From positions 1-34,884 of IMG/VR virus record IMGVR_UViG_3300045988_174060: a stretch of DNA of 34,884 nt; one strand, given 5' to 3'. Made by a program: the position numbers and the translations under genes. This document shows, piece by piece, positions 4,641 to 26,436 of the stretch (positions are counted from its first letter, which is position 1; every line of letters starts with the position of its first letter). This DNA is from a virus. Below the pieces are notes generated by a model that made no database searches, was not told the DNA's origin, and saw only the letters and a list, made by a program, of their open reading frames with translations.

Positions 4641-4797
4641 AAGTTGAAAAGTTTAGGAGTTGAAAAGCCAAGAAGTCGCTTTAAGAGTTGAAAAGTTAAG
4701 AGGTTTCCTCTGCTTGCCCAACTCATAAAACCGACCGCTTAACTTTTCAACTTTTCAACTTGAAAAACTCCAAACTCCTACTCTAACTCCAAAAGAC
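4641..4797 (+). repeat. Composite intergenic palindromic element, copy a (TTGCCC subfamily)
   Basis: Left arms are of the GTTGAAAAGTT/TAGGAGTT type. Core TCCTCTGCTTGCCCAAC at 4706-4722. The right arm CTTAACTTTTCAACTTTTCAAC runs up to the ATG at 4801. Confidence 0.85.
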
Positions 4798-4800
4798 CCT

Positions 4801-7710
4801 ATGATAAGAATAGAAAACCTATATCGCGCCACCAACGAGGGGCTCGATATCATACTGCACTACTACCCGCAGGCACGCGAGGTGGTGGGCTCCAAAAACA
4901 AGTTCAGGGTGCGCCCCGCCGACAAAACGCCCTCGGCCTGCCTCTACCTGTGCCACACACAGGGGGGCGAGGGTGTGTGGAAGGTGACCGACTTCGGCGA
5001 TGAGGGCCACGCGCAAAGCCCGCTCGACATCTGCATGAGGGAGGAGGGCATCGAACGCCCCTACGAGGCAGTGCTCAAGCTGGCCGCCATGTTCGACGTG
5101 CGTGACGAGCTGAACCGCTCCATCAACAAGCCCGACATCAAGCACCGCCCCGCCACGGCCGACGAGAAGGACGGCACACGCATCTTTGCCCTGCTTGAGC
5201 GCATACCCGAGAGCCACCTCAAAGTGCTTGGCCCGAGGGTGACGCACGCCGACACCGATGCGCTGCACTGGTACGAGGCCGAGTATGTGGGCTATGTCAA
5301 GAACCGCGAGGTGACGCTCAAGTACTCCACCGAGCACTACCCCATCTTCATGCGCGAGTGTGTGGTGGAGGAGGGCGGCGGCGAAAAGGCCGAAGTAAAG
5401 TTTTACAAAATATATGAGCCATTGAACCCCGACAAGGGTTTTCGCTTCAGCTATCACCCCGCAGGGGGCAAGCCCAAGGCCTACATCAACGGCCTTCACG
5501 AGCTGAAAGCCCTGTGGCGCAAGCTGAACGCCGACGAGGAAGCGGCCTTTTACCGCGACCCCGCCAACGAGGGCAAGCCCTACCGGGAGCAAAAGCTGAA
5601 GGAGGCCTTCATTTGTTCGGGCGAGCGCGACTCGCTGTGCTGCCACTCCATGGGCTACAGCCCGCTGTGGTTCAACTCCGAAACGTACCGCCTGAGCGAG
5701 GCAGAGTACAAGGAGGTGATGAAGTATGTGGAGGTGCTCTACAACATTCCCGACCTCGACAGCACAGGCGTGCGCAAGGGGCGCGAGCTTGCGCTGCGCT
5801 TCATAGACATACACACCATGTGGCTGCCGCAGAGCCTCACGGGCTACCGCGACAACCGCGGCCGCCCGCGCAAGGACCTGCGCGACTGGCAGGAGCTGCG
5901 CGACAGGCGGAGCGACTTTGCGGGCCTGATGGCACTGGCCATGCCTGCCAAGTTCTGGACGGAGCGCACCAACCGCAAAACGGGGGCCGTGACGTACGAC
6001 ATCGACACGGAGTGCCTGTACAACTTCCTCCGGCTGAACGGCTTTTACACCCTGCACGACGACAACATAAAGGAGGCGCGCTACATACACGTGCAAGGCA
6101 ACATTGTGCGCGAGGTGAAGGCCAAGGACCTGCGCCGCTTCATAAGCGAGTGGGCCGAGGAGCGCTGCCTGCCGCGCCCCGTGCGCAACCTCATACACAA
6201 CTCGCCAAGGCTGAGCGACTCAGCCCTCGACAACATGCGCGAGGTGACGCTCGACTTTACCAACTACACGCCCACCACGCAGCTCTTTTTCTTCCCGGGC
6301 AAAACGATTGAGGCCACCCCCACGGGCCTTGTGGAGCACTCAGGCGGGGAAGGTCTTGACCGCTATGTGTGGCAGGAGAATGTGCTGGACCACCGCGTCA
6401 CGCTCATGCCCCCCATGTTTGAGGTGGAGCGCAGCGTCACGCCCACGGGCGAGGCGCGCTTCGGGGTGAAGGTGAAGGACGCCGAGAGCAGCCCCCTGTT
6501 TGGCTACGTAATCAACACGAGCCGCGTGCACTGGCGCAAGGAGCTGGAGTACAACTTTGCCGAGCGCGATGCCTCGGAGGCCGAAGCCTACCACCGCGCC
6601 CACAAGTTCTGCATCGACGGCGAGGGCCTCACGCCCGACGAGCGGCACGAGCAGGAGCAGAACCTTGTCAGCAAACTCTTCACCATAGGCTACATGCTGC
6701 ACCACTACAAAAGCCCCTCGCGGGCGTGGGCGCCAATGGCCATGGACAACAAGATTGGCGAGGACGGCGAGTGCAACGGCCGCAGCGGCAAGTCGTTCCT
6801 GTTCAAGGCCCTCAGCCTCTTTATGAAAACGGTGAAGCTGAGCGGCCGCAACGCCAAGTTGATGGACAACCCGCACGTGTTCGACCAAGTGACGCAGCAC
6901 ACCGACTTTGTGCTGGTTGACGACTGCGACCGCCACCTTGACACGGGGGCATTTTACGACCTCATAACCTCGGACATGACCGTCAACCCCAAGAACAACC
7001 AGAGCTACACCATACCCTTTGAGCAAAGCCCGAAGTTTGGCTTTACCACCAACTATGTGCCGCGCGACTTCAGCCCCAGCACCGAGGCGCGCCTGCTTTA
7101 CCTTGTGTTCAGCGACTACTACCACCAGCGCACCGAGGGCAACGACTACCTTGAGAGCCGCAGCATACGCGACGACTTCGGGCGCGACCTCATAAGCTCC
7201 TCGTACAAGGAGGAGGATTGGAACGCGGACATAAACTTCTTTATGCAGTGCTGCCAGTTCTACCTGTCGATGTGCCAGGAGAGCGTCAAGCCCATGCCGC
7301 CCATGGGCAACATATTAAAGCGCAAGTTCAAGGCCGACATGGGCACCAACTTTGAGGAATGGGCCAACGTGTACTTTGCCGAGGAGGGCGACAACCTCGA
7401 CACCTTCATCGTTCGCCGCGAGGCCTACGACGCCTTTATAGACGATGCCAAGGTGAACAAGAATTTTTACACCATGAACAAGTTCACCAAGGCCTTGCGC
7501 TCCTTTGCCGCCCTCTGCCCCTACGTGTACGACTACAACCCCGCCGACTTGCTCAACTCGCAGGGCCGCATCTCGCGCCGCATCGACGGCAAGAGCGAGG
7601 ACATGATATATCTGCGCTCCACCAAGAGCCAGGCCAACCGCGAAAGCCTCGACACGGGGGCGCACCTCGACCCCGGGGCGGGATTTGTGCCGGACGAGAG
7701 CGAAGGCTAA
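4801..7710 (+). CDS. DNA primase / SF3 (P4-alpha or D5-like) helicase
   Basis: 969 aa. Central Toprim-like segment FICSGERDSLCCHSMGYSPLWFNSE. Walker A NGRSGKSF and Walker B FVLVDDCD. Confidence 0.8.
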   Translation: MIRIENLYRATNEGLDIILHYYPQAREVVGSKNKFRVRPADKTPSACLYLCHTQGGEGVWKVTDFGDEGHAQSPLDICMREEGIERPYEAVLKLAAMFDVRDELNRSINKPDIKHRPATADEKDGTRIFALLERIPESHLKVLGPRVTHADTDALHWYEAEYVGYVKNREVTLKYSTEHYPIFMRECVVEEGGGEKAEVKFYKIYEPLNPDKGFRFSYHPAGGKPKAYINGLHELKALWRKLNADEEAAFYRDPANEGKPYREQKLKEAFICSGERDSLCCHSMGYSPLWFNSETYRLSEAEYKEVMKYVEVLYNIPDLDSTGVRKGRELALRFIDIHTMWLPQSLTGYRDNRGRPRKDLRDWQELRDRRSDFAGLMALAMPAKFWTERTNRKTGAVTYDIDTECLYNFLRLNGFYTLHDDNIKEARYIHVQGNIVREVKAKDLRRFISEWAEERCLPRPVRNLIHNSPRLSDSALDNMREVTLDFTNYTPTTQLFFFPGKTIEATPTGLVEHSGGEGLDRYVWQENVLDHRVTLMPPMFEVERSVTPTGEARFGVKVKDAESSPLFGYVINTSRVHWRKELEYNFAERDASEAEAYHRAHKFCIDGEGLTPDERHEQEQNLVSKLFTIGYMLHHYKSPSRAWAPMAMDNKIGEDGECNGRSGKSFLFKALSLFMKTVKLSGRNAKLMDNPHVFDQVTQHTDFVLVDDCDRHLDTGAFYDLITSDMTVNPKNNQSYTIPFEQSPKFGFTTNYVPRDFSPSTEARLLYLVFSDYYHQRTEGNDYLESRSIRDDFGRDLISSSYKEEDWNADINFFMQCCQFYLSMCQESVKPMPPMGNILKRKFKADMGTNFEEWANVYFAEEGDNLDTFIVRREAYDAFIDDAKVNKNFYTMNKFTKALRSFAALCPYVYDYNPADLLNSQGRISRRIDGKSEDMIYLRSTKSQANRESLDTGAHLDPGAGFVPDESEG

Positions 7711-7713
7711 AAG

Positions 7714-7892
7714 ATTCAAGTTGAAGAGTTTAGGAGTTGAAAAGTTAAGAAGATACCTCTGCTTGTCCAACTCATAAAAGCGACCGCTTAACTTTTCAAC
7801 TCTTAAACTCTTCAACTTAAAACTCCGACCTCTTAACTCTTCAACTCTTAAACTTTTCAACTTTCCCCCTCAACTTTTCAACTCATAAACTT
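7714..7892 (+). repeat. Composite intergenic element, copy b (TTGTCC)
   Basis: Core ACCTCTGCTTGTCCAAC at 7755-7771. There are two successive G-free right-arm blocks before the ATG at 7893. Confidence 0.85.
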
Positions 7893-8315
7893 ATGAACTT
7901 AAAAAAAGAACACCTCGTACCCCCGGGCAGCGTGCCCGACGCCACACGCATACTTACGAATGTGGCCTACCTCATGGGCGATGTGACCAACACCCTCATG
8001 ATGGACGCACAAAGCCGCGTGGAGCGGCTCGGCTTCGACCTCAAGCACGACTGCAAGCAGCGCTGGCGCATGGCCGTGCACCAAACCGAACTGGCCAAAA
8101 GAGCCTGGGCCAGCTTTGCCCGCGAAATGTACACCCTCGAAGATGCCGCACAGGCCTGCGACGACAGCGACTACTTTGCCGACCTAATCCTCCTCATTGC
8201 CGACCGCGTGGGCGACAACCACCGCCGGCAACAAATGGTGCGCAACATGATTAAACGCCTCAAAAGCGAAGCACACATCTACGACGAACTCACACAGGGG
8301 CGGGCAGGCTTCTGA
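7893..8315 (+). CDS. Hypothetical protein (early region)
   Basis: 140-aa ORF. It starts directly after a right arm and has backbone-like composition. Confidence 0.6.
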   Translation: MNLKKEHLVPPGSVPDATRILTNVAYLMGDVTNTLMMDAQSRVERLGFDLKHDCKQRWRMAVHQTELAKRAWASFAREMYTLEDAAQACDDSDYFADLILLIADRVGDNHRRQQMVRNMIKRLKSEAHIYDELTQGRAGF

Positions 8316-8322
8316 CACGCCG

Positions 8323-8430
8323 TTTCAAGTTTGAAGTTTTAAGGTTATGAGGTTATAAAGTCACCTCTGCGAGTTCAACCACTGACCCCGACCTCTTAAA
8401 TCTTCAAATTCCCCCCCCAACTTTTCAACT
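8323..8430 (+). repeat. Composite intergenic element, copy c1 (dialect B arms, GAGTTC core)
   Basis: Left arm GGTTATGAGGTTATAAAGT. Core ACCTCTGCGAGTTCAAC at 8363-8379. Confidence 0.8.
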
Positions 8431-8566
8431 TTACTACATAGGGGGATAGAAAAAACAACATAGGGCGGTAGAAAAAACTATCCCCCTATGTCGTTAAAAC
8501 GATATCGACTGAGAGAAAAAACGCGTCGCCTATACAATTAAAACGCGTCGCCTATGTAGTAAAGTT
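8427..8566. repeat. Nested inverted- and direct-repeat cluster (CATAGG-type motifs)
   Basis: Outer inverted repeat AACTTTACTACATAGG (8427-8442) with CCTATGTAGTAAAGTT (8551-8566). Inner inverted repeat CATAGGGGGATAG (8437-8449) with CTATCCCCCTATG (8478-8490). A related CATAGGGCGGTAG lies at 8459-8471. ACGCGTCGCCTAT occurs twice as a direct repeat, starting at 8521 and at 8543. Confidence 0.75.
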
Positions 8567-8686
8567 GAGAAGTTTATAAGTTGAAAAGCTTATGATGTCA
8601 CCTCAGCTATTTCAACTACTTAAACCGACCTCTTAACTCTTCAACTTTTCAACTTTACCCATAAACTTATAAACTCCAAAATTCCC
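8561..8686 (+). repeat. Composite intergenic element, copy c2 (degenerate core)
   Basis: Left arm AAAGTTGAGAAGTTTATAAGTTGAAAAGC. Degenerate core ACCTCAGCTATTTCAAC at 8600-8616. Right arm CCTCTTAACTCTTCAACTTTTCAAC. Confidence 0.7.
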
Positions 8687-8986
8687 ATGACACTACTCAC
8701 CCTCCTCCCCCTCGGCCTGCTGGCCCTCATCATCGCCACCGCCACCGCCTACCACTACGGCTGCCGACGCACACAGGCCACAGCCGACGACCAGATGCGC
8801 CAAGTCACAAGCAACACCCGACTCGCAGCCTACGACGAAGGCTACACCCGGGGCTACGACGACGGACACAAAGCTGGAAAAGATGAAGGCTTCAGCGACG
8901 GCCGACGCTACGAAGCCGCCACACACCACAACCAGCAAGTAATAGAGGCCGAAATAGCACGACACCTCAAACACCCACGCCAATGA
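8687..8986 (+). CDS. Small membrane-anchored protein
   Basis: 99 aa with an N-terminal TM segment LLTLLPLGLLALIIATATAY. Confidence 0.55.
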   Translation: MTLLTLLPLGLLALIIATATAYHYGCRRTQATADDQMRQVTSNTRLAAYDEGYTRGYDDGHKAGKDEGFSDGRRYEAATHHNQQVIEAEIARHLKHPRQ

Positions 8987-9234
8987 ACACACCCAAACTA
9001 CACTCCAGCATCAGCCAGCACGACGCACTGCGCCTGCTCGAAGACGGGGAACCGCACCGCCTGCGCGTGTGGAAACTCTCAACCGGCGACATACTCACCT
9101 ACGAGGGCGCACGCTGCATAGGCGGGCACAAGCGACGCGGCACACACCGCATCAGGCTCCCGCAGTCGGCACTCATTCGCGAGTTCCGCGACTGCACACT
9201 ATTTGAGATTGACCACATGACCATATACTGGTAA
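8983..9234 (+). CDS. Hypothetical protein
   Basis: 83 aa. Its start overlaps the upstream stop as ATGA, suggesting translational coupling. Confidence 0.55.
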   Translation: MNTPKLHSSISQHDALRLLEDGEPHRLRVWKLSTGDILTYEGARCIGGHKRRGTHRIRLPQSALIREFRDCTLFEIDHMTIYW

Positions 9235-9237
9235 GGC

Positions 9238-9349
9238 GAAAAGTTGAGGAGTTGAGGAGTTGAAAAGTTGAGAAGTTTCCTCTGCTTGCACAACTCTTAA
9301 AAGCGACCCCTTAACTTTTCAACTCTTAAACTCCTAAACTCTTCAACTC
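9238..9349 (+). repeat. Composite intergenic element, copy d (TTGCAC)
   Basis: Core TCCTCTGCTTGCACAAC at 9278-9294. The arms flank it and the right arm abuts the ATG at 9350. Confidence 0.85.
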
Positions 9350-9700
9350 ATGCTCCTCCTCCCCACCATACCCGATGAATGGCTCACCCCCCAAGGCTTC
9401 AGCCGCCTCTACCGCGAGGGCGGCGAAACATTCCGCACATTCGCCCGCCAAGTGTACGACTACCTCGAAACCATGCACCCCGGCCGCAGCGTCACCTTCC
9501 GTCGCTACCAAGGCTCGCCAAAACTCGAGTGGTGCGTGCGCACGGCAGCCATCTTCCTGCTCACCGCCGACCACTGGCGCCAATACGACCTCATGGACGA
9601 CCGCATAACCATACGCCGACACCGCACACCACCCACCAACACCCACTACCGACCCACAGCCACCATCAGCCAAGCCACACGCCGCATGTACGGCAAATAA
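9350..9700 (+). CDS. Hypothetical protein
   Basis: 116-aa ORF starting immediately after the right arm. Confidence 0.55.
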   Translation: MLLLPTIPDEWLTPQGFSRLYREGGETFRTFARQVYDYLETMHPGRSVTFRRYQGSPKLEWCVRTAAIFLLTADHWRQYDLMDDRITIRRHRTPPTNTHYRPTATISQATRRMYGK

Positions 9701-9706
9701 ATTTGC

Positions 9707-9762
9707 AGATACTACAAATATGTTATACAAATATTTGGCCATATAACATATTTGTAGTATCT
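9707..9762. promoter_or_regulatory. Perfect 21-bp inverted repeat overlapping the hicA promoter; candidate operator
   Basis: AGATACTACAAATATGTTATA (9707-9727) pairs with TATAACATATTTGTAGTATCT (9742-9762) across a 14-nt spacer. Confidence 0.7.
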
Positions 9763-9765
9763 TTG
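9734..9765 (+). promoter_or_regulatory. Canonical Bacteroidota promoter
   Basis: TTTG at 9734-9737, then 20 nt, then TATCTTTG at 9758-9765. Confidence 0.65.
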
Positions 9766-9809
9766 TATTGTGAAAAGAGAACTAAAGTATAACCCCTAAA
9801 ACCAACTTG

Positions 9810-9992
9810 ATGAAATGGAATGAACTAAAGAAACAAGCACTGCAACATGGATTTGAACTCAGCCGCCACGGCAAGGAGCACGACATCTATGTAAACCACG
9901 CGAAAGGCATAACCATACAAATTGAAAGACATGGGAACGCCGAAGTAAAAAAAGGCCTGTACTTCAAACTAAAAAAGCAAATAGGCTTTTAA
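9810..9992 (+). CDS. hicA: HicA-family mRNA-interferase toxin
   Basis: 60 aa. MKWNELKKQALQHGFELSRHGKEHDIYVN...IERHGNAEVKKGLYFKLKKQIGF fits the HicA/YcfA pattern. AT-rich. Confidence 0.75.
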   Translation: MKWNELKKQALQHGFELSRHGKEHDIYVNHAKGITIQIERHGNAEVKKGLYFKLKKQIGF

Positions 9993-10066
9993 CCTACACC
10001 AGAGCAAGGGAGGGCAACCCCCCACCCTCCCTTGCCTGCCACATTATAAAGGAAAGGTACAAAAAA

Positions 10067-10480
10067 ATGGAAAAAGCACACTTTACAGTAACAATCGAAA
10101 AGGACACCGACGGCACCTTCTTAGCCTACAACACCGACAACAGCCCATACACACTCATAGGGCGAGGCCACACGGTAAAAGAGGCAAAAGCCGACTTCGC
10201 CAACTCCATGGCCGAAGCAAGAGCCGACGAAGAACAGCGCGCCGGCAAAGCTGCCCCCATACTCAAGGCCGACCCCGTGTTCAAGTTTGACGTGTCCACC
10301 CTCTTCGACTACTACAACATGCTCAACGTGAGCGCCTTCGCACGATACTTAGGCATTAACGAAACACTCATGCGCCAATACAAAAGGGGAGGCACTTACA
10401 TATCAGACACACAACTGCAAAAAATTGAAGAAGGGCTGCACAAATTAGGCGCCGACCTCATCAGTACAAAGTTACTTTAG
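10067..10480 (+). CDS. hicB: HicB-family antitoxin with a C-terminal HTH
   Basis: 137 aa. The N-terminal fold motif FTVTIEKDTDGTFLAYNTD...GHTVKEAKADF is HicB/UPF0150-like. C-terminal HTH ARYLGINETLMRQYKRG. Lies directly downstream of hicA. Confidence 0.75.
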   Translation: MEKAHFTVTIEKDTDGTFLAYNTDNSPYTLIGRGHTVKEAKADFANSMAEARADEEQRAGKAAPILKADPVFKFDVSTLFDYYNMLNVSAFARYLGINETLMRQYKRGGTYISDTQLQKIEEGLHKLGADLISTKLL

Positions 10481-10505
10481 TTTCCCCCACATTCCATTTC
10501 ACACC

Positions 10506-10538
10506 GCCCGGCACGTCACCCCACGTGCCGGGCTTTTT
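10506..10538 (+). terminator. Intrinsic terminator of the hicAB moron
   Basis: GCCCGGCACGT-CACCCC-ACGTGCCGGGC followed by TTTTT. Confidence 0.75.
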
Positions 10539-10623
10539 CGTGCCCACACGCCGCCTTAAATCCGTAAAATTGACCAATCCCGAACCACTGAGAGGGAAGA
10601 AAGGTTTTACCACACCCCCTAAA

Positions 10624-10918
10624 ATCGTACTTTTTTTTTGTAATTTTGTATCACACTTTGTATCAAACAAAGAAAAGTATTGAATATCAATAAAATAAGT
10701 AAGAAAAAAAGGTGATACAAAACCCGATACAATTCTGATACAATTTTTTCCCGAAATGTATCACCCCCCGTTTTGTATCAGCCCCCGCCCCCCTGATACA
10801 ATTTTATTTTGCCCGATACAAAAATGTATCAGCCAAAGAAGAAAAATGTATCACTTGAAAATCAGATAGTTACGCTACAAAATTACGCTGATACAAAATT
10901 ACAGAAAAAAAGTACGAA
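10624..10918. repeat. AT-rich array of 12 TGTATCA/TGATACA heptamers bounded by 29-bp inverted repeats
   Basis: TGTATCA starts at 10647, 10659, 10757, 10774, 10825 and 10847. (T/C)GATACA starts at 10713, 10725, 10736, 10794, 10814 and 10889. The flanking inverted repeat 10624-10653 versus 10889-10917 has one internal mismatch. Confidence 0.85.
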
Positions 10919-11012
10919 ATTCGACCTCAGCCAGATTACAGGAAAAACACACCGCACGCACTACGCCACGAACCAAGCCCGAAAAACGACAAAAAGAACA
11001 AGGGTAAAAGTT

Positions 11013-11110
11013 GAAAAGTTTAGGAGTTGAAAAGTTTAGAGGTTACCTCTGCGAGTTCAACCTCTAAAACATTCCTCTTAACTCTTAAACTTTTCAACTC
11101 CTCAACTTTA
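11013..11110 (+). repeat. Composite intergenic element, copy e (GAGTTC)
   Basis: Core ACCTCTGCGAGTTCAAC at 11045-11061. ACATTCCTCTTAAC box at 11069-11082. Confidence 0.85.
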
Positions 11111-11130
11111 ATTTTCCCCCCTCCCCACAC

Positions 11131-11643
11131 ATGAAAGGCCTAACCGTATACCTCCGTCTTGAGCCATACCTGCGCCAATGGCTTACCCACCACTTTGGCA
11201 GCCCCGTGCGCTTCCCGCCACGCTCCTACGAGAATATGCTCCTCCACCGCCTGCTCTCACGCCCCGCAGCTGGAGCCACCACCGCCACGGGGCCAACCTG
11301 CCCGCCCGACAGCGTGGCAATAGTCATAACCGACCACGCCCAGCGGCGGCCCGAATACTGGTGCCACCTCTCACGCAGGGCACAGGCCGAAATGGCACGC
11401 GCCGTGGCCAACCTCTTTTGCCTCGCCCTGTGGAGCGAGTGCGTGTGCCTCATACACAGCGGCACACTCAACCGCGGCATCGACTCATGGTGTCAGGCCA
11501 ACGGCATTGCACTCATCTACCGCGAGGGCGTAAGGCAGAAGTTTTACCGCATGCGGCGCCTTTATGCGCAGAATGGCGTAATTCTTGGCAAAAAATATAC
11601 CCACGCAAGTGGTAATAATCACACACACACCACCCACCCATGA
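11131..11643 (+). CDS. Hypothetical protein in the small-terminase position
   Basis: 170 aa. Its stop overlaps the terL start as ATGA. No motif was recognised, so the TerS role rests on position only. Confidence 0.6.
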   Translation: MKGLTVYLRLEPYLRQWLTHHFGSPVRFPPRSYENMLLHRLLSRPAAGATTATGPTCPPDSVAIVITDHAQRRPEYWCHLSRRAQAEMARAVANLFCLALWSECVCLIHSGTLNRGIDSWCQANGIALIYREGVRQKFYRMRRLYAQNGVILGKKYTHASGNNHTHTTHP

Positions 11644-13262: not shown

Positions 13263-13308
13263 TGCACGCCGTGCCCAAGAAATAATACAAAAAAACTTAT
13301 TGATTTTC

Positions 13309-13339
13309 TTTGATAATAAGTATATTATTATTATCTTTG
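13309..13339 (+). promoter_or_regulatory. Canonical Bacteroidota promoter
   Basis: TTTG at 13309-13312, then 19 nt, then TATCTTTG at 13332-13339, in a very AT-rich spacer. Confidence 0.6.
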
Positions 13340-13376
13340 CAGTGTAATAAAAACAAAGAAAGGAGGTGTACAATGA

Positions 13377-13514: not shown

Positions 13515-13520
13515 AACAAA

Positions 13521-19116: not shown

Positions 19117-19118
19117 CA

Positions 19119-19261
19119 AGTTGAAAAGTTTATAAGTTTATGAGGTTACCTCTGCTTGTCAAACTCATAAAAGCGCCCTCTTAACTTCTCAACTCCTCAA
19201 CTTTTCAACTCAGAAAACCGACCTCATAAACTCCTCAACTTCTAAACTTCTCAACTTTATA
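19119..19261 (+). repeat. Composite intergenic element, copy j (TTGTCA)
   Basis: Core ACCTCTGCTTGTCAAAC at 19148-19164. Confidence 0.85.
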
Positions 19262-20632
19262 ATGACGAACTTCGACCAACTACGCGACACTGCCGCCACC
19301 ATACGCGACGAAAAGGCACGCTACGCCAACACCGCCAACCGTGTGGGCACACTGCTCTACAACATGTGCCTGGCCATGGCCGACACCGACGCCGCCGCAT
19401 CGGCCGACCACCCCATAACGCAGGGCCTCGGCCAGTGGCTCACCACCCACGACAACCTGACCACCCTCGACGCCCTGAACGCCGCGCTCGACGCCATGAA
19501 CGTGGACTCCCCCCAGGGCCTGCACCGCTTCAAGTGCCTCGACATACCGGTGCTCACCTACTTCGGCGTGCTCGTGAAGGACACCAAGCGCTATGTGCAG
19601 ATAGCGGTGGGGGCTTTCACCCTCAACACGCATGGCACCGCGCTGGCCTCGATCAACGACACAGCATCAACGCGCAACGTGATAGTGCGCTACTTTAACG
19701 GCACCAAGTGGCAGGCATGGCAGCCCCTGCAGCCGCAAAAGCAAACGTCGTACTCGGGCTACAACGGCAACTATGTATACTCCGAAGGCACGACCGACAA
19801 CACGCGCACCATACTGAGCAGCAAAATGTGGACTTATACACACGGCGACCGCAACTTGTTTTTACGCTTCAAGCACTGGGGCGCAGAGAACAACACTGAG
19901 ACAAGCCAATACAGTCAAGTGCTGCTATGCTATTTGGTGAACAGGAACCAAGACGGGCTGATGGATAAGTATGTGTTTGCCCGCATTCTGAATAACAATC
20001 TTGCAGAAGGGCTGAGCACTACGGACAGCGTAATTGTTAACTACACAAACTTTGCCGAGAGTGGCAACAAGCAACTTGTACTCACCAAGGCCACAAGCGC
20101 CAAGGCGGGCGTCATGACGGCCGCACAGGCCACGCAGCTGAGTGCGCTGGACGAAGGCATAAAGCAAGTGAGCCTGAACGGCGGCAAAAAGTGGGAGTTC
20201 CGCACCCTCGGGGGCGAAAAGGTGTTGGAAACGCTCTCCGACGTAATGGGCGAGGAGGTAAGCCACTCCGACTTCGAGAACGCCGAACTCGCCACCTACA
20301 TGGAGGGCAACCCCATCGAGGTGTACCAAACGCAGGGTGCCTACGGTGTGCCTGCGCAAAAGTACATGATATGGTTCGGCCACCGCATCAAGGGCGCCAG
20401 CGGCACACTGCAGCGCTACGACTTCAAGACCATTGCCGGCATGGAGCCGCTCGCGTTGTACTACAGAGTGCCACAGGGCACCGCGATGCACTTCTGGACT
20501 CTGACCAATGGCCATGCCATTGCCTACAAAGGCTCGGGGGGCCTCACGGCGCAACTGAGTACCGCGCCCTACATCATGAGCACCAACGACAAGGCGGTGC
20601 TCGAAAAGTTGAGGGGGCAGTTGAAAAGTTGA
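19262..20632 (+). CDS. Structural-module hypothetical protein
   Basis: 456-aa ORF. The last codons (KLRGQLKS-stop) are encoded by left-arm repeat units. Confidence 0.65.
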   Translation: MTNFDQLRDTAATIRDEKARYANTANRVGTLLYNMCLAMADTDAAASADHPITQGLGQWLTTHDNLTTLDALNAALDAMNVDSPQGLHRFKCLDIPVLTYFGVLVKDTKRYVQIAVGAFTLNTHGTALASINDTASTRNVIVRYFNGTKWQAWQPLQPQKQTSYSGYNGNYVYSEGTTDNTRTILSSKMWTYTHGDRNLFLRFKHWGAENNTETSQYSQVLLCYLVNRNQDGLMDKYVFARILNNNLAEGLSTTDSVIVNYTNFAESGNKQLVLTKATSAKAGVMTAAQATQLSALDEGIKQVSLNGGKKWEFRTLGGEKVLETLSDVMGEEVSHSDFENAELATYMEGNPIEVYQTQGAYGVPAQKYMIWFGHRIKGASGTLQRYDFKTIAGMEPLALYYRVPQGTAMHFWTLTNGHAIAYKGSGGLTAQLSTAPYIMSTNDKAVLEKLRGQLKS

Positions 20633-20725
20633 AAAGTTAAGAGGTAACCTCTGCTTGCCCCAACTCTTAAAACCGACATCTTAACTCTTAAACTCTTAAA
20701 CTCATAAACTTAAAAATCCTCCTCT
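20604..20725 (+). repeat. Composite intergenic element, copy k (TTGCCC); left arm inside the upstream CDS
   Basis: Left arm AAAAGTTGAGGGGGCAGTTGAAAAGTTGAAAAGTTAAGAGGT. Core ACCTCTGCTTGCCCCAAC at 20647-20664. Confidence 0.85.
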
Positions 20726-20977
20726 ATGACCAAAGAAGACCGTACAAAATACCAAGTTTACTCGGCGCTGGCCATGCTCCTTGCGGGTGTGGCACTGAGT
20801 GTGGCGGGGTTCCTGGTGCCCCCGGTGGGCGAGATCAGCGACTCGGTGCTGTGGTTCTTTGCCCAGTGCCTCATTTATGCCGGCTCAATATTCGGCGTGA
20901 GCATCTACGTGCAAAGCAAGTTCACCGAGCTGAAAGAAGAAATAAACAACCGCAAAAACATTGACAAGAGTAGTTGA
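20726..20977 (+). CDS. Holin candidate (two TM segments)
   Basis: 83 aa. TM1 VYSALAMLLAGVALSVAGFLV and TM2 VLWFFAQCLIYAGSIFGVSIYV, with a charged C-terminal tail. Lies directly upstream of the amidase. Confidence 0.55.
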   Translation: MTKEDRTKYQVYSALAMLLAGVALSVAGFLVPPVGEISDSVLWFFAQCLIYAGSIFGVSIYVQSKFTELKEEINNRKNIDKSS

Positions 20978-21117
20978 AAAGTTTATGAGTTGAAAAGTTA
21001 AGAGGTTACCTCTGCTTGCCCAACTCTTAAAAGCGTCCTCTTCACTTGTCAACTTATAAACTCTTAAAAGCGACCTCTTAACTCATAAACTTATAAACTT
21101 ATAAACTTTTCCATTCC
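20970..21117 (+). repeat. Composite intergenic element, copy l (TTGCCC)
   Basis: The holin stop TGA lies inside GTTGAAAAG. Core ACCTCTGCTTGCCCAAC at 21008-21024. Confidence 0.85.
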
Positions 21118-21540
21118 ATGCTTGACCCCCGACAAATCAAATACCTCATAGTGCACTGCACCGCCACCGCCCGCGGCAAGGACTTCACCGCCGCCGACGT
21201 GGACCGCTGGCACCGCCAGCAGGGGTGGGACATGATAGGCTACCACTACCTGGTGCGACTCGACGGCACCATAGAGCCCGGCCGCCCCGAAACCATGCAG
21301 GGCGCACACTGCAAGGGCTACAACCGCCAGAGCCTGGGCATATGCTACGTGGGAGGGCTCGACGCCCAGGGCCGCCGCCCCGAGGACACCCGCACCACGG
21401 CACAGGTGGCAGCCCTTGGCGCACTGCTCAAACGGCTGCGCCGCAAGTACCCCAAGGCCCGCATCGTGGGCCACCACAACCTTAACCCCGGCAAGGCGTG
21501 CCCATCGTTCGACGCCCGTGCCGAATATGCCGACCTATGA
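21118..21540 (+). CDS. N-acetylmuramoyl-L-alanine amidase (Amidase_2/PGRP, T7-lysozyme-like endolysin)
   Basis: 140 aa. Motifs IVHCTAT, GYHY and GHHNL..GKACPSF match the Zn-ligand pattern H...H...C of the T7 lysozyme family. Confidence 0.9.
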   Translation: MLDPRQIKYLIVHCTATARGKDFTAADVDRWHRQQGWDMIGYHYLVRLDGTIEPGRPETMQGAHCKGYNRQSLGICYVGGLDAQGRRPEDTRTTAQVAALGALLKRLRRKYPKARIVGHHNLNPGKACPSFDARAEYADL

Positions 21541-22019
21541 CCCACACCCCACACCCCAACCCATTAAGGCGGCTTACACTCGTAACCCTTGGCCGCGTGG
21601 CCACCATGGCGGCCCTGCTCGCCCTGCTTGCCTTCACGGCCACAAGTTGCCGCCAAGTGCACTACATCACCACCAACCGCACCACCCACACCACCGACAC
21701 GGTGGAGCGCTGGCACGTGAGGCTCGACTCTGTGCTCGTGGCCGACTCGGTGAGCCTCACTCAGTGGCAGCGGGACGACACCGTATATGTCGAAAAAACG
21801 CGCCTCAAAATTCGTAACCGTGTAACTCTGCAGCACGACACGCTGTGGCGCACTGCCATCAGGCACGACACCATCAGCACCGAGGCCAAGCCCGCCAAGG
21901 CCGGCACGGGGGGCAGAATTCTACAAAATCGGTCGAATTTTGCCAACACCCTCAAACGGCTCATCGTGCTGGTGCCCCTTGTGCTGCTCTGCGTGTATAT
22001 GAAGAAACGCAAGCTCTAA
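21537..22019 (+). CDS. Lipoprotein with a C-terminal TM segment; unimolecular-spanin-like candidate
   Basis: 160 aa from the ATG at 21537, which overlaps the amidase stop as ATGA. Signal peptide and lipobox-like LLAFTATSC. C-terminal hydrophobic segment LIVLVPLVLLCVY followed by MKKRKL. Confidence 0.5.
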   Translation: MTHTPHPNPLRRLTLVTLGRVATMAALLALLAFTATSCRQVHYITTNRTTHTTDTVERWHVRLDSVLVADSVSLTQWQRDDTVYVEKTRLKIRNRVTLQHDTLWRTAIRHDTISTEAKPAKAGTGGRILQNRSNFANTLKRLIVLVPLVLLCVYMKKRKL

Positions 22020-22127
22020 TGGGGGCGTTTCTTCAAGCTGCACCTTCTTACCCGCGGGAAAGTTTCCAAACTTTTAAGGGTTGGAAAGTTTCAGCCCGCC
22101 CTTGCTAAATCCGAAAATTGGAACCTT

Positions 22128-22175
22128 GGCATTCCTCTTAACTTTTCAACTCCTCAACTTATAAACTTAAAACTC
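22128..22175 (+). repeat. Composite intergenic element, right arm only (copy m)
   Basis: GGCATTCCTCTTAACTTTTCAACTCCTCAACTTATAAACTTAAAACTC, directly before the ATG at 22176. Confidence 0.7.
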
Positions 22176-23255
22176 ATGCTCCGCCTCACCACCACACTGC
22201 CCACCCTGGCCTTTGCCACCGAGATACAGGACCTCGGCTTCAGCGGCGGCACCCCCGGCACACCGTGCCACATAAGTATCACCCTCGGAGGGGCCGTGGT
22301 GCTCGACATCTACCTCACACCCGACACCGCGGGCCGCTTTGCCCTGCACGACCTTGGCTGGCTGATTAGCACATACGCCATGGCCACACAGGGCAAGTGG
22401 CTCACCGAGCTGCGCATAGAGGCCGACAAAAAGCTGCTTGCCACCGTGAGCATCATGCCCTGCCGCCAGCGGCTCTACATCAACGGGGCCGACTTTGTGC
22501 AGCGTTCCTTCCTCACCATGGCGGGCGGCGGCTGCAAGGTGGTGCCAAAGCTGGCCACCGAGCGCCTTGTGTGGAAGCCGTCGGACGAGGAGCGAAAGCA
22601 GGAGCGCCCCGTGAGTGTGCGCGTCACCCTGATGGACCTCACTACGGGAAAAACCCGCCGCATAGGCAGCGAGTTCAGGGCCGAGGAGTACAACGACGAA
22701 CTGCTCTGCTACAACACCTCGCCCGCCTACATTGTGGGCAACCTCGAGCAGTACGGCCCCTTGAGCGGCGCCACAAGCCAGCCCGTGGGCTACGACGTGA
22801 CGGTGGGCCAGCGCACCATGCGCTACCGCCTCGCCCCATGGGACGCGGACGCCGCACCCGTCACCACGCTCGACTTTACCAACGTGTTTGGCCTGTCGGA
22901 CTCCTTGTATCTGTATGGCGAGGTGGAGGAAGCACTCAAGCCCACCTACACGCAGGTGGTGGTGGGCGGCTCGGCCTACAACGCCAACGTGGAGGCGCAG
23001 GCCGAATTCAAGGCCACCACGGGTGCACTGAACGCGGCCGAGGTGGCTCTCATCAAGGACGTGATGACGGCGCGCGAGGTGTGGCACGACGACACGCCCG
23101 TCACCATAACCGCTGCCGAACTCAAAGGCTCGAATGCCTACAACACGGCCGACTCGGCCACGCTGACGTGGCGCGAGAGTCAGGGCGGCTTGGCGGTGCT
23201 CACACCGCTGCCCGTGCGCACGTTCGACGGAACTTTCGACGAAACGTTTTTATAA
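22176..23255 (+). CDS. Structural-module hypothetical protein
   Basis: 359-aa ORF. Confidence 0.65.
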   Translation: MLRLTTTLPTLAFATEIQDLGFSGGTPGTPCHISITLGGAVVLDIYLTPDTAGRFALHDLGWLISTYAMATQGKWLTELRIEADKKLLATVSIMPCRQRLYINGADFVQRSFLTMAGGGCKVVPKLATERLVWKPSDEERKQERPVSVRVTLMDLTTGKTRRIGSEFRAEEYNDELLCYNTSPAYIVGNLEQYGPLSGATSQPVGYDVTVGQRTMRYRLAPWDADAAPVTTLDFTNVFGLSDSLYLYGEVEEALKPTYTQVVVGGSAYNANVEAQAEFKATTGALNAAEVALIKDVMTAREVWHDDTPVTITAAELKGSNAYNTADSATLTWRESQGGLAVLTPLPVRTFDGTFDETFL

Positions 23256-23428
23256 GTTGAAAAGTTTAGGAGTTGAAAGGTTAAGAGGATACCTCTGCGA
23301 GTTCAACTCTTAAAAGCGACCGCTTAACTCTTAAACTCTTCAACTTCTCAACTTAAAATTCCTCCTCGCCAGACATTCCTCTTAACTCTTCAACTTCTAA
23401 ACTTTTCAACTTAAAACCCCCTCCCCCT
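23256..23428 (+). repeat. Composite intergenic element, copy n (GAGTTC) with a second module
   Basis: Core ACCTCTGCGAGTTCAAC at 23291-23307. Module-2 box at 23349-23386. Confidence 0.9.
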
Positions 23429-24772
23429 ATGGAATACTTCGCCATACCCCAAACCCAATTTGCCGCCGTCATGGCCGAGGTGGAGGACACCACCACCGTG
23501 TTCGACACCCCGGGCGGCACCATCGTCACACGCCCCGTGCCGGGCTACCCGCAGGAGGCCTACGTGCCCTACGGATCAGACAACCAGCTGCCCTACGACC
23601 TTGTGCGCCTTGTGGCATCAGACGAGGTGACGGCACAGAACAAACTCTTTAACGTGCTCACATGCTACGGCGCAGGCCTCAGGCTCACCGACTCTACCAC
23701 ACACGAGCCCACCACCGACCCCGAGGTGCGCGCATGGCTCAAACGGCAGAACATGCCGGCCTACATGCTGGACCAAATGACGGACATGAAGTACTTTTAC
23801 TTCTCCGTGGCCGTCATCATACTCTCACGCGACGGCCGCCGCATCAACCGCCTTGTGCACAAGGAGGCGTGCCACTGCCGCCTTGAAAAGGCCGACCGCC
23901 GCGGACGCATCAACCACCTGTACTACGCCAACTGGCAGGACTGGCAGGAGGGCATCAACGGTGTGGAACGCATAGAGCTGCTCTCGCTCGCCGACCCCTA
24001 CGGCGACCTGTGCCGCCGCATGGCCATTGACCCCGACACGCACCAGCCCACAGGGCGCACACCCACACGCACACGAAAGTTCGCCGTAGTGATGCGGTTC
24101 CCCACAGCGGGCGCGCAGTACTACCCCGTGCCCTACTGGAGCGCCGTGCTGCGCGGCGGCTCCTACGACGAGAAACGCCTCATAAGCACCGGCAAGCGCG
24201 CCAAACTGCGCAACACCACGAGCGTGAAGTATCAAATTGAAATCGAGCGCTCCTACTGGCAACGCATCTGCATGGAGGAGAACATCACCGACCCCGAGGA
24301 GATGCAGAAACGCGTGGTGAGGGAGAAACAGAACATTAAGGACTTCCTGTGCGGTGTGGAGAACTCGGGCAAGGCGTGGATTAGCGGTTACTATGTGAAC
24401 CCCGACGGACACGAGGTGCGCGACATTCGCATCGTCAACATTGAGGGGGCAAAGGAGGGCGGCGACTGGAACGAGGACGTGCAGGCCGCGGCCAACACCA
24501 TTTGCTATGCCGACAATGTGCACCCCAACCTGGTGGGGGCTGTGCCGGGAAAAACGCAGACTAACAACTCGGGCTCCGACAAGCGCGAACTCTTTACCAT
24601 GAAGCAGGCGCTCGAAATTGCCTTCCACGACATGTTGCTCACGCCCATCAACATGGTGCTGTGGTACAACCAGTGGGCGCACATCGAGCCCACCATTCCG
24701 ATGATACAACTCACCACGCTCGACGAACACGCCGACGCTAAAAAAGTTAATGCTAATGGAGATAATAATTGA
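23429..24772 (+). CDS. Portal-like protein (tentative)
   Basis: 447 aa. The size fits a portal, and no other portal candidate is in the window. I did not verify a diagnostic motif. Confidence 0.4.
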   Translation: MEYFAIPQTQFAAVMAEVEDTTTVFDTPGGTIVTRPVPGYPQEAYVPYGSDNQLPYDLVRLVASDEVTAQNKLFNVLTCYGAGLRLTDSTTHEPTTDPEVRAWLKRQNMPAYMLDQMTDMKYFYFSVAVIILSRDGRRINRLVHKEACHCRLEKADRRGRINHLYYANWQDWQEGINGVERIELLSLADPYGDLCRRMAIDPDTHQPTGRTPTRTRKFAVVMRFPTAGAQYYPVPYWSAVLRGGSYDEKRLISTGKRAKLRNTTSVKYQIEIERSYWQRICMEENITDPEEMQKRVVREKQNIKDFLCGVENSGKAWISGYYVNPDGHEVRDIRIVNIEGAKEGGDWNEDVQAAANTICYADNVHPNLVGAVPGKTQTNNSGSDKRELFTMKQALEIAFHDMLLTPINMVLWYNQWAHIEPTIPMIQLTTLDEHADAKKVNANGDNN

Positions 24773-25583
24773 ACGTGCCGACTTTGAGCGCGCCGTGCCG
24801 GCCTTCCGCTCGCCCACGCCCGAGGTGTGGAACAAGGTGCAGCGATATGTGCAGGGCTGCACCGACTCGTGGCAAGCCATCATCACCACCGGGGCCACAC
24901 TGCCCGACCATGTGGCCGAAGGCCTTACCACGGCCATCTGCCTGCGCGCGGCCTATGATGCCGTGCCGCAAATGGACCTCGTGCTCACGCCCACGGGCTT
25001 CGGCATTGTGAGCAACCAGAACACCGCACCCGCCAGCCGCGAGAGGGTGGACGCCCTGCGCCTGCAGCTGCGCCGCGAGGCATGCCACCTCGAGGACGGC
25101 GTGCTCTCCCACCTGGCGGCACGTGGCCTCATGACTCTGCGCCGCTCGCGGGCCGACTCCCTGCTCTGGACGCCCACGCTGTGCACCCTGCACGGCATAC
25201 GCACCCCCGACGGCCGCGAGGTGCTGCGCGAGGAGTTCGAGGCCATGGCCACCGCGCTGCACGCGGCTTCGGCACGGGTGGTGGACGCCATTTCGCCCGA
25301 ACTCTATGCCGCACTTGTCAGCCGCCAGTATGAGGCCGATGCCGACCTCACGCCCGACACCACGCCAGCGGCCTACGCCGAGGCACTGACCATGGCACGC
25401 AGGCTCATGGCGGCGCACGTGATGCAAGGGCCGGGCATTGCCACCCACACACGCCACATCATCAACTTTATTGAGGCGCACGCCGACCAGCTGGACGAGT
25501 ACAGGCTGAGCCCCACTTACCAAGCACGACACGCAAAGCTTTATGAAAACAAACAAGCAGACCCCTCCTTCTTTTTCGGCTAA
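24750..25583 (+). CDS. Structural-module hypothetical protein
   Basis: 277-aa ORF. The start is ATG 24750 or ATG 24756, and either overlaps the upstream gene. Confidence 0.6.
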   Translation: MLMEIIIERADFERAVPAFRSPTPEVWNKVQRYVQGCTDSWQAIITTGATLPDHVAEGLTTAICLRAAYDAVPQMDLVLTPTGFGIVSNQNTAPASRERVDALRLQLRREACHLEDGVLSHLAARGLMTLRRSRADSLLWTPTLCTLHGIRTPDGREVLREEFEAMATALHAASARVVDAISPELYAALVSRQYEADADLTPDTTPAAYAEALTMARRLMAAHVMQGPGIATHTRHIINFIEAHADQLDEYRLSPTYQARHAKLYENKQADPSFFFG

Positions 25584-26268
25584 AAGGGTGCGCTCATCTA
25601 TCAGGGCGCACATTCCGCAGTCGTGGCTGGCCCTTACCAACGAGCAACGCCACTACCTGTGCGCGCTGATGGCCCGCGGCGAATGGACGTCCGACGAGAT
25701 GCAGGCCTTGTTCCTTGCACGCATCATCGGCCAGAGCCACAGCGTGCTGATCCGCCTCAAGGACGACATTGCAGCACTCATGCCCCTGGTGGACTTTATA
25801 GCCCAGCCGCCCGCCGAACCCTCGCGCATGAGCCACATAGCGGGCCATGCCGCTGTGGACGCCATGCTCGACGGGGTGCCGTTCCGCACCTACCTGGAGG
25901 TGGAGAACTACTACCAAGGCTACCTCAAAGTGCAAAGCCCCGAGGCCTTGAACGCCATAGGCATGTCGCTCTACCCCGGCACGGCGGAGGCCGACTTTGA
26001 CAACGCGCACCGCGTGATGCTCCTGCTGTGGCTCGTGGGGCTCAAGGCGCAGTATGCGGCCCTATTCCCCCACCTGTTCGGGCAACCCGGCTCGGCCGAC
26101 CCTGACAGCGCACCGCCCGACCCGCGCGCCATGATGGTGACTTGCCTGCGCGCACTGACGGGGGGCGACATTACCAAACAGCCGGCAGTGCTCAGCACGC
26201 CCACGCTCGACGCGCTGACCGAACTTGATGCCAAGGCAGAAGAAATGAAAGCTTTGAAGCTTTCATAA
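25543..26268 (+). CDS. Structural-module hypothetical protein
   Basis: 241 aa from ATG 25543, which gives a 41-nt overlap. The alternative GTG at 25588 lies 4 nt after the upstream stop. Confidence 0.55.
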   Translation: MKTNKQTPPSFSAKRVRSSIRAHIPQSWLALTNEQRHYLCALMARGEWTSDEMQALFLARIIGQSHSVLIRLKDDIAALMPLVDFIAQPPAEPSRMSHIAGHAAVDAMLDGVPFRTYLEVENYYQGYLKVQSPEALNAIGMSLYPGTAEADFDNAHRVMLLLWLVGLKAQYAALFPHLFGQPGSADPDSAPPDPRAMMVTCLRALTGGDITKQPAVLSTPTLDALTELDAKAEEMKALKLS

Positions 26269-26270
26269 TA

Positions 26271-26436
26271 GTTGAAAAGTTGGAAAGTTTAAGAGTTAAG
26301 AGGTCACCTCTGCGAGTTCAACCGCTAAAACATTTCTCTTAACTTCTAAACTTTTCAACTCATCAACTTAAAATCCCCCTCCAAGCTTGACATTCCTCTT
26401 AACTTCTCAACTTATAAACTTTTCAACTCTAAAAGT
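26271..26436 (+). repeat. Composite intergenic element, copy o (GAGTTC) with a second module
   Basis: Core ACCTCTGCGAGTTCAAC at 26306-26322. Module-2 box at 26364-26403. Confidence 0.9.

Follow-up and report, generated by a model that had tools for sequence, protein, structure and literature searches.

The window analysed here, all 34,884 nucleotides (nt) of IMG/VR virus record IMGVR_UViG_3300045988_174060, is a complete temperate prophage of gut Bacteroidota, with 34.9 kb and 55–60% G+C, in which a repeated intergenic element occupies nearly all gaps between genes. Overall each copy measures ~100–300 bp and comprises a stop-rich arm of G, T and A, a conserved loop, and G-free arms that run up to the next start codon. 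Copies are retained at the same junctions in close relatives while their parts turn over, and they bound genes that have been exchanged with a distantly related phage lineage. Our preferred reading, to which we give a probability of about 0.45, is that the element is a recombination-prone intercistronic cassette joining stop codons, a hairpin and a Shine-Dalgarno (SD)-independent leader, akin to the promoter-early stem-loop (PeSL) cassettes of T4-like phages and to the start-associated sequence (SAS) and extended start-associated sequence (ESAS) of mycobacteriophages. An earlier note, made from the letters of the window, had proposed a single modular element family, and this proposal is upheld.

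An nhmmer profile of the core recovers 14 full cores in the window, 13 on the + strand and one on the − strand (17846–17919), all of them intergenic and spanning 4687–26361. Reading every gap between + strand genes adds two junctions with a right arm only (15370–15414 and ~22130–22175), so that the set of 14 cores and two partial copies noted earlier is reproduced, and all copies of either kind fall within 4641–26436 (Table 1). The division of the cores into seven GAG-type, six TTG-type and one degenerate copy is likewise correct. Sixteen stands as the number of copies but not as the number of junctions, since the interval 8316–8686 holds two and the occupied intervals are therefore 15. These intervals sum to ~7% of the genome, a figure that takes in two stretches outside any element, ~120 bp within 8316–8686 and ~110 bp within 22020–22175. 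At up to one mismatch, AGAGGTNACCTCT has 8 matches in the window, on the + strand only, against 0.03 expected. Exact ACCTCTGC has 11 matches against 1.3 expected, and all 11 lie within elements, at 7755–26313.

Each arm is built from 8-nt units in tandem: GTTKADRA makes up the left arm, and the right arm consists of the complementary unit. Tandem Repeats Finder returns a period of 8 in every arm, which replaces the unit length of 8–11 bp first given, while the two arm dialects, A and B, are as originally described. The core had been presented as a 6+6 palindrome, yet the conservation of this 13-bp sequence is uneven: the right half together with the following GC (ACCTCTGC) is nearly invariant, whereas the left half is the last unit of the arm and is variable. 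Because the arms form an inverted repeat, the order of G-rich then C-rich is identical on both strands and arm polarity is no marker of orientation; the direction of an element is given only by its loop and by its surplus right arms. By this measure 13 of the 14 window cores point forward (binomial p = 0.002). The count is the one made previously, but it does not reflect a fixed orientation, as the loop flips in relatives and is antisense in another lineage. Two further likenesses of the core were rejected. Mini-stems in the loop (GCTT/AAGC, CAAG-CT-CTTG, GAGTT-C-AACTC) are palindromes with spacers of 1–2 nt and cannot form in RNA, and the resemblance of GAG-type cores (GCGAGTTCGACC) to a tRNA T-arm lacks the 3′ stem strand and is treated as coincidence.

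All elements sit in the long lytic operon, whose genes run co-directionally. Morons with their own promoters and hairpin-plus-T terminators have none, and neither do genes that overlap as ATGA, two absences that the earlier note had reported and that the reading of the gaps bears out. A scan with the core profile also finds no element in the tail-gene half of the same operon (26437–34000).

The clearest view of how the element behaves comes from seven relative contigs with 88–98% nucleotide identity to the coding DNA of the window. Every junction that holds an element in the window also holds one in these relatives (15 syntenic junctions compared), so that a lack of copies at syntenic junctions of related phages, named in the earlier note as an outcome that would refute it, is not what is observed. 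The elements nevertheless diverge far more than the flanking genes, changing in both the number and the type of their units. GAG and TTG cores interchange at the same junction between close relatives; junctions 17173 and 17830, dialect B in the window, are dialect A in relatives; and junction 22020, with a right arm only in the window, has a full element in four relatives. At four junctions (8316, 9235, 16381 and 23256) the loop is flipped between unchanged arms in some relatives, and the flip restores the 13-bp palindrome. The near-fixed core orientation of the window is therefore not essential, and over unique copies in all loci ~82 are forward and 35 inverted, approximate numbers given noisy gene calls. 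ACCTCTGC is present in ~55 of 60 syntenic copies, which were identified independently of the motif. Neither empty sites nor target-site duplications nor clean insertions were seen at the 15 junctions in up to seven relatives; the differences are replacements and rearrangements with breakpoints inside the arms. An invertase-driven inverton is an unlikely source of the core flips, since the inverted segment is only ~30 bp, and recombination or template switching between the arms would be a simpler cause.

Beyond close relatives, the element has a narrow but informative distribution. A scan of viral contigs with a 14-base core gave 116 loci, mostly chance matches, and was superseded by an arm-plus-core pattern, which finds the element in ~22 IMG/VR contigs and in many human-gut metagenome contigs of 10–56 kb. 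Of 185,579 species genomes, that of Prevotellamassilia timonensis alone holds several copies, all in prophage-like regions: 13 in a prophage-like stretch of 56–60% G+C and 1 in a second phage-like locus. The core profile matches 85 of 250 fetched loci. The earlier note had asked whether the element might be a generic repetitive extragenic palindrome (REP) or MITE (miniature inverted-repeat transposable element) of the host; the profile has no match in 165 unrelated loci totalling 1.37 Mb, nor in ~19 kb of host DNA flanking this prophage, and the element appears to be phage-specific. Among GenBank phages (INPHARED) there is no nucleotide match to the capsid region including its junctions, and no relevant paper contains the sequence strings of the element.

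Two other phage lineages carry it. The first, represented by contig 175129 and the P. timonensis prophage, has 40–50% amino-acid (aa) identity to a few window proteins and holds elements at nearly every junction of its lysis region; among their proteins, conservation between the two element-rich lineages is highest in the CI-like repressor (51% identity). The second consists of phages with a giant polyvalent protein, whose only DNA in common with the window lineage is the element itself, 140–195 bp at three conserved sites. In these phages the core subtype interchanges between members, and the core is antisense at both sites examined. The polyvalent protein of this unrelated lineage (L132 109–11865; contigs 109794, 119370, 076680, 086542 and 088549; P. 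timonensis L161) reaches up to 3918 aa, has InPase, LPD3, LPD23, ART-PolyVal and methyltransferase domains, and is followed directly after its stop by an element copy. In the same lineage, the ATG of a gene beside another copy is preceded at 9 nt by a strong SD-like AGGAGG, an uncommon feature where the host is one of the Bacteroidota.

Elements also bound the genes that move. At junction 19117, relatives 169842 and 171945 carry two inserted HU-like gene cassettes, each bounded by elements, and the two element-bounded HU-like genes of the 175129 lineage match these inserts at 93% aa and 83–87% nucleotide identity. The homology of the exchanged cassettes stops at the elements. One HU-like gene is duplicated elsewhere within contig 175129, again bounded by elements. 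At junction 26269 there are element-bounded inserts of an extra open reading frame (ORF) of ~262 aa in relative 177933 and of two antisense genes in relative 172432. This bounding of exchanged cassettes and the sharing among unrelated phages were both missed by the earlier note, and they place the element nearest to the PeSL ‘mobile regulatory cassettes’. Two observations concern the HU-like inserts themselves. In contig 178118 (L139 4042–4602) a 186-aa ORF fuses the N-terminal part of HU-a to the C-terminal part of HU-b at a shared ADIKAV, a chimera that indicates recombination between neighbouring cassettes; and within the junction-19117 insert of 169842 and 171945, AAAAACGCGTAGGCACAACCGT occurs as an iteron-like repeat in five tandem copies.

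At the level of RNA, element junctions are predicted to fold as hairpins of 15–35 bp with minimum free energies (MFE) of −20 to −94 kcal/mol, in line with the arm pairing originally estimated. The z scores lie between −4 and −12 in 11 of the 14 core-bearing junctions; the weak folds are 8313–8440 (z −1.3), 20590–20728 (z −0.1) and 8560–8689 (z −4.0). Across 96 unique copies 79% of stem positions are paired, so the stems are imperfect. Rfam returns nothing at gathering thresholds, and at E ≤ 1 only sub-threshold eukaryotic microRNA precursors, which are generic long hairpins.

The two sides of the element differ in their relation to the flanking genes. Over 54 unique syntenic junction sequences, the median distance is 4 nt from the stop codon to the first left unit and 13 nt from the last right unit to the ATG. 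Stop codons within arm units, described before, were found in three genes (10809–11030, 19262–20632 and 20726–20977). G arms contain stops in all three frames at 26 of 40 junctions (65%) compared with 5% of length-matched random windows. In the sense orientation 337 G-free units face 158 G-type units, a 2.1-fold excess on the start-codon side that supports the G-free leader put forward in the earlier note. Together with the right-arm-only junctions, this excess is a directional asymmetry not expected of a symmetric DNA element. The right arms are G-free and ~30–35% C over 30–230 nt, and the 40 nt before element-preceded ATGs contain no G in 11 of 15 cases and 1–3 G in the other four (4801, 9379, 18140 and 26437). 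Start regions are predicted to be accessible, with a mean unpaired probability of 0.65. Bacteroidetes mRNAs lack SD sequences and initiation relies on low structure around the start (PMC3155529, PMC6847099, PMC9976891). G-free, open leaders fit such SD-independent, structure-sensitive initiation.

No junction contains a Bacteroidota −33/−7 promoter (TAnnTTTG or TTTG-N17–23-TAnnTTTG) on the + strand, and neither a sigma-70-like site nor, on the + strand, an intrinsic-terminator-like site was found at the elements. A promoter inside the element was rejected on these grounds, and transcription of the genes must therefore pass across the elements, giving polycistronic RNA. On the − strand, at 16409–16421, 20640–20652 and 21001–21013, the inner palindrome AGAGGTNACCTCT is followed by TAACTTTTCA, a combination flagged as a weak terminator-like site. 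Such a site might damp antisense transcription, though its 5-bp stem is marginal.

These features can be assembled into a model in which the element would serve as a portable intercistronic cassette for a guild of temperate phages whose hosts are gut Bacteroidota resembling Prevotellamassilia. The C-free G/U/A arm, 0–10 nt past the upstream stop or containing it, would close the upstream cistron with stops in all frames. This arm would then pair with the first G-free arm in a long imperfect hairpin around the conserved loop of ~30 nt (ACCUCUGC...), insulating the cistrons either by guarding the 3′ end of the upstream mRNA or by serving as a processing site for a double-strand RNase. One to three further G-free A/C/U arms, predicted not to self-fold, would continue up to ~13 nt before the AUG, and these surplus arms would constitute the unstructured leader needed by SD-independent Bacteroidota ribosomes. 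Since the arms are an inverted repeat, the cassette would work in either orientation. From this arrangement we infer that the element takes part in processing or stabilising RNA and that translation benefits from it. At the DNA level, comparison between phages shows that the ~150 bp repeated from junction to junction, and present also in unrelated phages that co-infect, serve as portable homology. Through recombination at these copies the elements are reshuffled and their loops flipped, and the genes that they bound are inserted, deleted, duplicated and exchanged.

Several results weigh against this cassette model, most of them against its hairpin. Within dialect A there is no arm-to-arm covariation at variable unit positions, and the sole covariation between arms is the switch between dialects A and B. 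Cognate arms pair at −31.3 kcal/mol and non-cognate arms at −29.0, a gain of only ~2 kcal/mol. Isolated stem mismatches in the sense orientation are A·C more often than G·U (39 versus 24), in keeping with a coding strand biased towards A and C, and the minus strand folds more stably than the plus strand at every junction. Start sites with an element show no significant gain in accessibility over genes without one (p = 0.14), one copy in the polyvalent-protein phages follows the final gene of an operon, where no start codon comes next, and the loop motif ACCTCTGC is left without a job. Selection for a sense-RNA hairpin thus appears weak on the covariation, arm-pairing and mismatch tests, which counts against the mRNA hairpin role envisaged in the earlier note. 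The stronger statement that RNA structure is under purifying selection was dropped as an established fact, the wobble-asymmetry test having come out opposite (A·C > G·U).

An absence of RNA-type covariation would be natural if the element were instead selfish, a mobile palindrome of the MITE, REPIN or BOX type that spreads among the phages of one host and is tolerated in gaps, its seeming design marking only where insertion is not lethal. This explanation, which we consider unlikely, draws on the multi-copy, palindromic and modular build of the element, which resembles pneumococcal BOX A-B(n)-C, on the sharing of one discrete unit and no other DNA with the polyvalent-protein phages, on the swapping of core subtypes at one site between close relatives, and on the exchangeability of arms between copies. 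One survey counts ‘vMITEs’ in Prevotella phages and does not describe the elements themselves (PMC11602168). Against a selfish origin, the 15 junctions in seven relatives offer no empty site, target-site duplication or clean insertion, and no transposase was recognised in the window, where Pfam and PHROG scans of the proteins show only the tyrosine integrase. The ~19 kb of host flanks have no copies, although the full host genome lay outside that scan. Near-saturating occupancy is kept in the lineage at 40–50% aa identity, and the sense excess of G-free units, with right-arm-only junctions beside ATGs, argues for selection by the flanking genes.

The remaining alternatives assign the element a single function. 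In translational coupling, a terminating ribosome would melt the outer stem and free the G-free arm, making each cistron depend on translation of the previous one. The geometry is suggestive: almost all junctions have the stop within the stem or 0–10 nt from where pairing begins; the outermost left arm pairs with the ATG-nearest part of the right arm at single-right-arm junctions; and elements are absent from ATGA overlaps, the usual coupling solution. We nonetheless find coupling improbable, as surplus unpaired right arms at most junctions leave the start region predicted open without melting, element 1 (4641–4800) has no upstream cistron, and one copy in the polyvalent lineage has no downstream one. 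No better in our estimate is a conditional transcription barrier, in which the C-rich G-free arms, with YC every 8 nt, would be rut-like Rho loading sites and the hairpins pauses. In the lysogen, stray transcripts of the late operon would thus be cut short at every junction, and only phage antitermination would let them pass, in analogy with stoperators. Rho utilisation (rut) sites are expected to be G-free, C-rich and unstructured, a composition that the right arms have and that the leader hypothesis explains equally well. Restriction of the elements to the co-directional lytic operon, with none in self-contained morons, also suits a barrier, but no antiterminator was identified and the tail-gene half of the same operon has no elements. 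Most doubtful of all is a distributed DNA site, bound at ACCTCTGC or at the 8-bp unit arrays by a stoperator-like, nucleoid, packaging or replication protein. Its appeal is that no part of the element is conserved more strongly than ACCTCTGC, that the palindrome is rebuilt when the loop flips, and that the CI-like repressor is so well conserved between the element-rich lineages. However, the left half of the 13-mer is poorly conserved, the 8-bp period is unlike the helical repeat of DNA, and the sense-oriented asymmetry of the arms is left unexplained. The motif is absent from the immunity and early-promoter region, where the palindromes are of another type (TAACGCGGTTACGTAA), and the stoperator form of this explanation is disfavoured for that reason.

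Among known systems, the closest in function and evolution is the PeSL and the closest in architecture is the ESAS/SAS. PeSLs in the T4-like phages RB49 and phi1 unite a stop, a stem-loop and a start, and genes are shuffled through them (Arbiol et al. 2010, PMC2839356). Both are repeated intergenic cassettes with a stem-loop, ~100 bp in the PeSL, that extend from an upstream stop to a downstream start, and PeSL phages contain dozens of copies per genome, with related copies in other phages (PMC2839356). Copies of the present element likewise flank genes that differ between close relatives, with homology ending at the copies (junctions 19117 and 26269; the HU-like cassettes), and copy-to-copy recombination accounts for gene insertion, deletion and replacement in the PeSL system (PMC2839356). 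PeSLs, however, have a strong sigma-70 promoter and an SD, neither of which is recognised here, and by its lack of a promoter the element falls outside the PeSL family. PeSL stems are short G/C runs acting as terminators, compared with stems of 15–35 bp built from unit arrays and without a T-tract in the window. They occupy hyperplastic early-ORFan regions rather than the replication, head and lysis backbone, and the two share no sequence similarity.

The comparison with SAS and ESAS, drawn in the earlier note together with that to the RNase III hairpins of T7, fits the architecture. In Cluster K mycobacteriophages the SAS is a conserved sequence directly before start codons, mostly in one orientation, preceded in about half of cases by an imperfect inverted repeat, kept at the same genes across related phages and suspected of a role in translation (Pope et al. 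2011, PMC3203893). Whereas the SAS consists of one 13-bp motif, and the ESAS of an inverted repeat of 17 bp whose spacer measures 4–13 bp (PMC3203893), the present element has multi-unit arms, a conserved loop and a G-free start-proximal array, and matches neither the consensus nor the dimensions of the SAS. It also belongs to another host phylum with another mode of initiation, is shared by unrelated phages, and has a loop that flips. T7 carries ten or more conserved intercistronic hairpins on polycistronic transcripts, oriented with transcription, and the predicted stems (15–35 bp, imperfect) reach the sense double-stranded length of ~20 bp or more of T7-type sites and are compatible with a double-strand RNase. 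Unlike the element, T7 sites have no tandem units, repeat leaders or sharing among unrelated phages, and the mismatch pattern of the element does not favour sense RNA.

REPs, bacterial interspersed mosaic elements (BIME), REPINs and pneumococcal BOX are similarly short, modular, palindromic, multi-copy extragenic repeats that form hairpins in RNA or single-stranded DNA. BOX varies in the number of its internal modules, and REPs near stop codons affect expression. These repeats are dispersed in host chromosomes, whereas the element occurs only in phage and prophage DNA (host flanks of ~19 kb and the genome collection scanned), is tied strictly to gene junctions, and has one arm type in sense excess. 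No association with a REP-associated tyrosine transposase (RAYT) or other transposase is known for it, and insertion polymorphism of the REP/MITE kind, with empty sites and target duplications, was not seen. With Cluster A stoperators the element has in common that a temperate phage carries a short conserved motif many times over, oriented, in its small intergenic gaps, but the comparison made in the earlier note fails at the immunity region. The stoperator is one asymmetric site of 13 bp for the repressor and is found, too, as the operator at the early promoter, while none of the 11 ACCTCTGC copies lies in 1–4600, the motif is embedded in a repeat of 100–300 bp, and its orientation flips among relatives. 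Integron attC was also rejected: the RYYYAAC ... GTTRRRY polarity is reversed here (GTT-type 5′, AAC-type 3′, on both strands) and no IntI was found. The element is placed in no existing family, yet its kind, the phage-specific repeated gene-junction cassette, is already known and is not a new category. Its unusual traits are the arrays of 8-nt units, G-free leaders in an SD-less phylum, an orientation-independent design, loop flipping and sharing among unrelated phages.

A bolder form of the cassette model, conceivable although on the unlikely side, is an orientation-independent ‘universal gene junction’ of three-frame stops, hairpin and G-free leader that would both express and mobilise genes. 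If so, whatever ORF lay between a pair of copies would be properly terminated, and its translation would need no SD. This would amount to an integron-like cassette economy run by general recombination with no dedicated integrase, in which unrelated phages of one host trade ORFs. Gene expression in Bacteroidota phages is poorly understood and their hosts ignore SD sequences, and the cassette model, if true, would offer a testable account of how polycistronic phage mRNAs are punctuated and translated in Bacteroidota, as well as a ready-made part for Bacteroides and Prevotella engineering. Gene exchange at elements between unrelated gut phages, which the comparisons show, gives a concrete mechanism for the mosaicism of the human gut virome, and the element could mark phages as belonging to one host group. 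Experiments are feasible, since a prophage with no fewer than 13 copies resides in a strain available in culture, P. timonensis Marseille-P2831T.

Table 1. Copies of the intercistronic element in the window.
Feature	Position	Strand	Description
Element 1	4641–4800	+	Double G-type left arm; TTG-type core 4687–4760; G-free right arm to ATG 4801; follows the tRNA/tmRNA-like region, not a gene
Element 2	7711–7892	+	TTG-type core 7736–7809; perfect predicted hairpin of ~32 bp (MFE −47.8, z −8.8), then two more unpaired right-arm modules up to ATG 7893
Element 3	8316–8440	+	Dialect-B left arm; GAG-type core 8344–8410; dialect-A-like right arm; arms mismatched, weak fold (z −1.3)
Element 4	8560–8686	+	Degenerate core (CCTCAGCTATTTCAAC) 8582–8654; right arm to ATG 8687
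Element 5	9235–9378	+	TTG-type core 9259–9332; loop flipped in relatives 172432 and 177933
Element 6	11003–11130	+	GAG-type core 11026–11099; left arm overlaps last codons and stop of 10809–11030
Right-arm-only copy	15370–15414	+	Four to five G-free 8-nt units directly before ATG 15415; right arm only in all relatives
Element 7	16378–16548	+	GAG-type core 16397–16470, then second unpaired right arm; TGA stop forms the first paired bases; loop flipped in four relatives
Element 8	17173–17295	+	Both arms dialect B (GGTTATGAGGTTATAAAG / CTTTATAACCTTATAACC); core 17194–17268; z −8.9; dialect A in relatives
Element 9	17830–18139	+	Dialect B; inverted core 17846–17919 (− strand); right-arm module of 92 nt in 2.5 tandem copies, 17897–18122
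Element 10	19117–19261	+	TTG-type core 19130–19202; second right arm 19205–19248
Element 11	20605–20725	+	TTG-type core 20628–20702; left-arm units are the last codons and stop of 19262–20632
Element 12	20972–21117	+	TTG-type core 20989–21062; second right arm 21059–21099; TGA of holin-like gene (20726–20977) inside GTTGAAAAG
Right-arm-only copy	22130–22175	+	Before ATG 22176; full element in relatives 177933, 170438, 169842 and 171945
Element 13	23256–23428	+	GAG-type core 23272–23345; second right arm; z −12.3; loop flipped in relatives 178118, 170438, 169842 and 171945
Element 14	26269–26436	+	GAG-type core 26287–26361; second right arm

The identity of the window as a prophage follows from its ends and its genes. 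A 49-bp direct repeat (1–49 = 34836–34884) at the two ends matches the 3′ half of a tRNA, scoring 28.9 bits against the Rfam tRNA model with the match cut at the 5′ end; these repeats are the attL and attR cores. In IMG/VR contig 169842 the two prophage ends are joined, as the excised circular form would give. The proteins of the window include a Bacteroidota-type tyrosine integrase, a CI-like repressor, a large terminase, a head protease, an amidase and a tape-measure protein. Metagenomic copies place the prophage in host DNA of 48–50% G+C, with genes for TrkH, LytTR and HU on one side and for a hybrid two-component sensor, RimP and NusA on the other.

Other features of the prophage stand apart from the element. 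Inverted repeats of 24 nt at 2210–2233 and 2765–2788 enclose the CI-like repressor gene (2354–2767) and its upstream region, and this 0.55-kb segment (2210–2788) is found both ways round in independent metagenomic copies of the prophage, with breakpoints exactly at the repeats. It is inverted in loci L250, L251, L108 and L112 and oriented as in the window in L252–L257, which looks like an invertible switch of the immunity gene. The non-coding region 4130–4640 has two copies of a tRNA/tmRNA-like 3′ end (GGGTTCGACTCCCGCCGCCTGC), present once or twice in relatives; at 4535–4625 ARAGORN reports an odd 91-nt tRNA-Gly(gcc), and at 4519–4629 Rfam gives a sub-threshold tmRNA match. Iteron-like repeats at 8430–8560, comprising two copies of the 22-bp ACATAGGGCGATAGAAAAAACA and a repeated ACGCGTCGCCTAT(A/G)(C/T)A spaced by AAAAC runs, could be a replication origin or a regulator-binding array. 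Finally, the AT-rich moron at 9734–10533 is served by a promoter of its own, of Bacteroidota type (TTTG-N-TAnnTTTG, 9734), and by a terminator made of a GC hairpin and a T-tract (10506–10533). It encodes a HicA-toxin-like ORF (~9810–9992), assigned through a Pfam HicA_toxin match on the identical gene in locus L251, and a partner of 137 aa (10067–10480).

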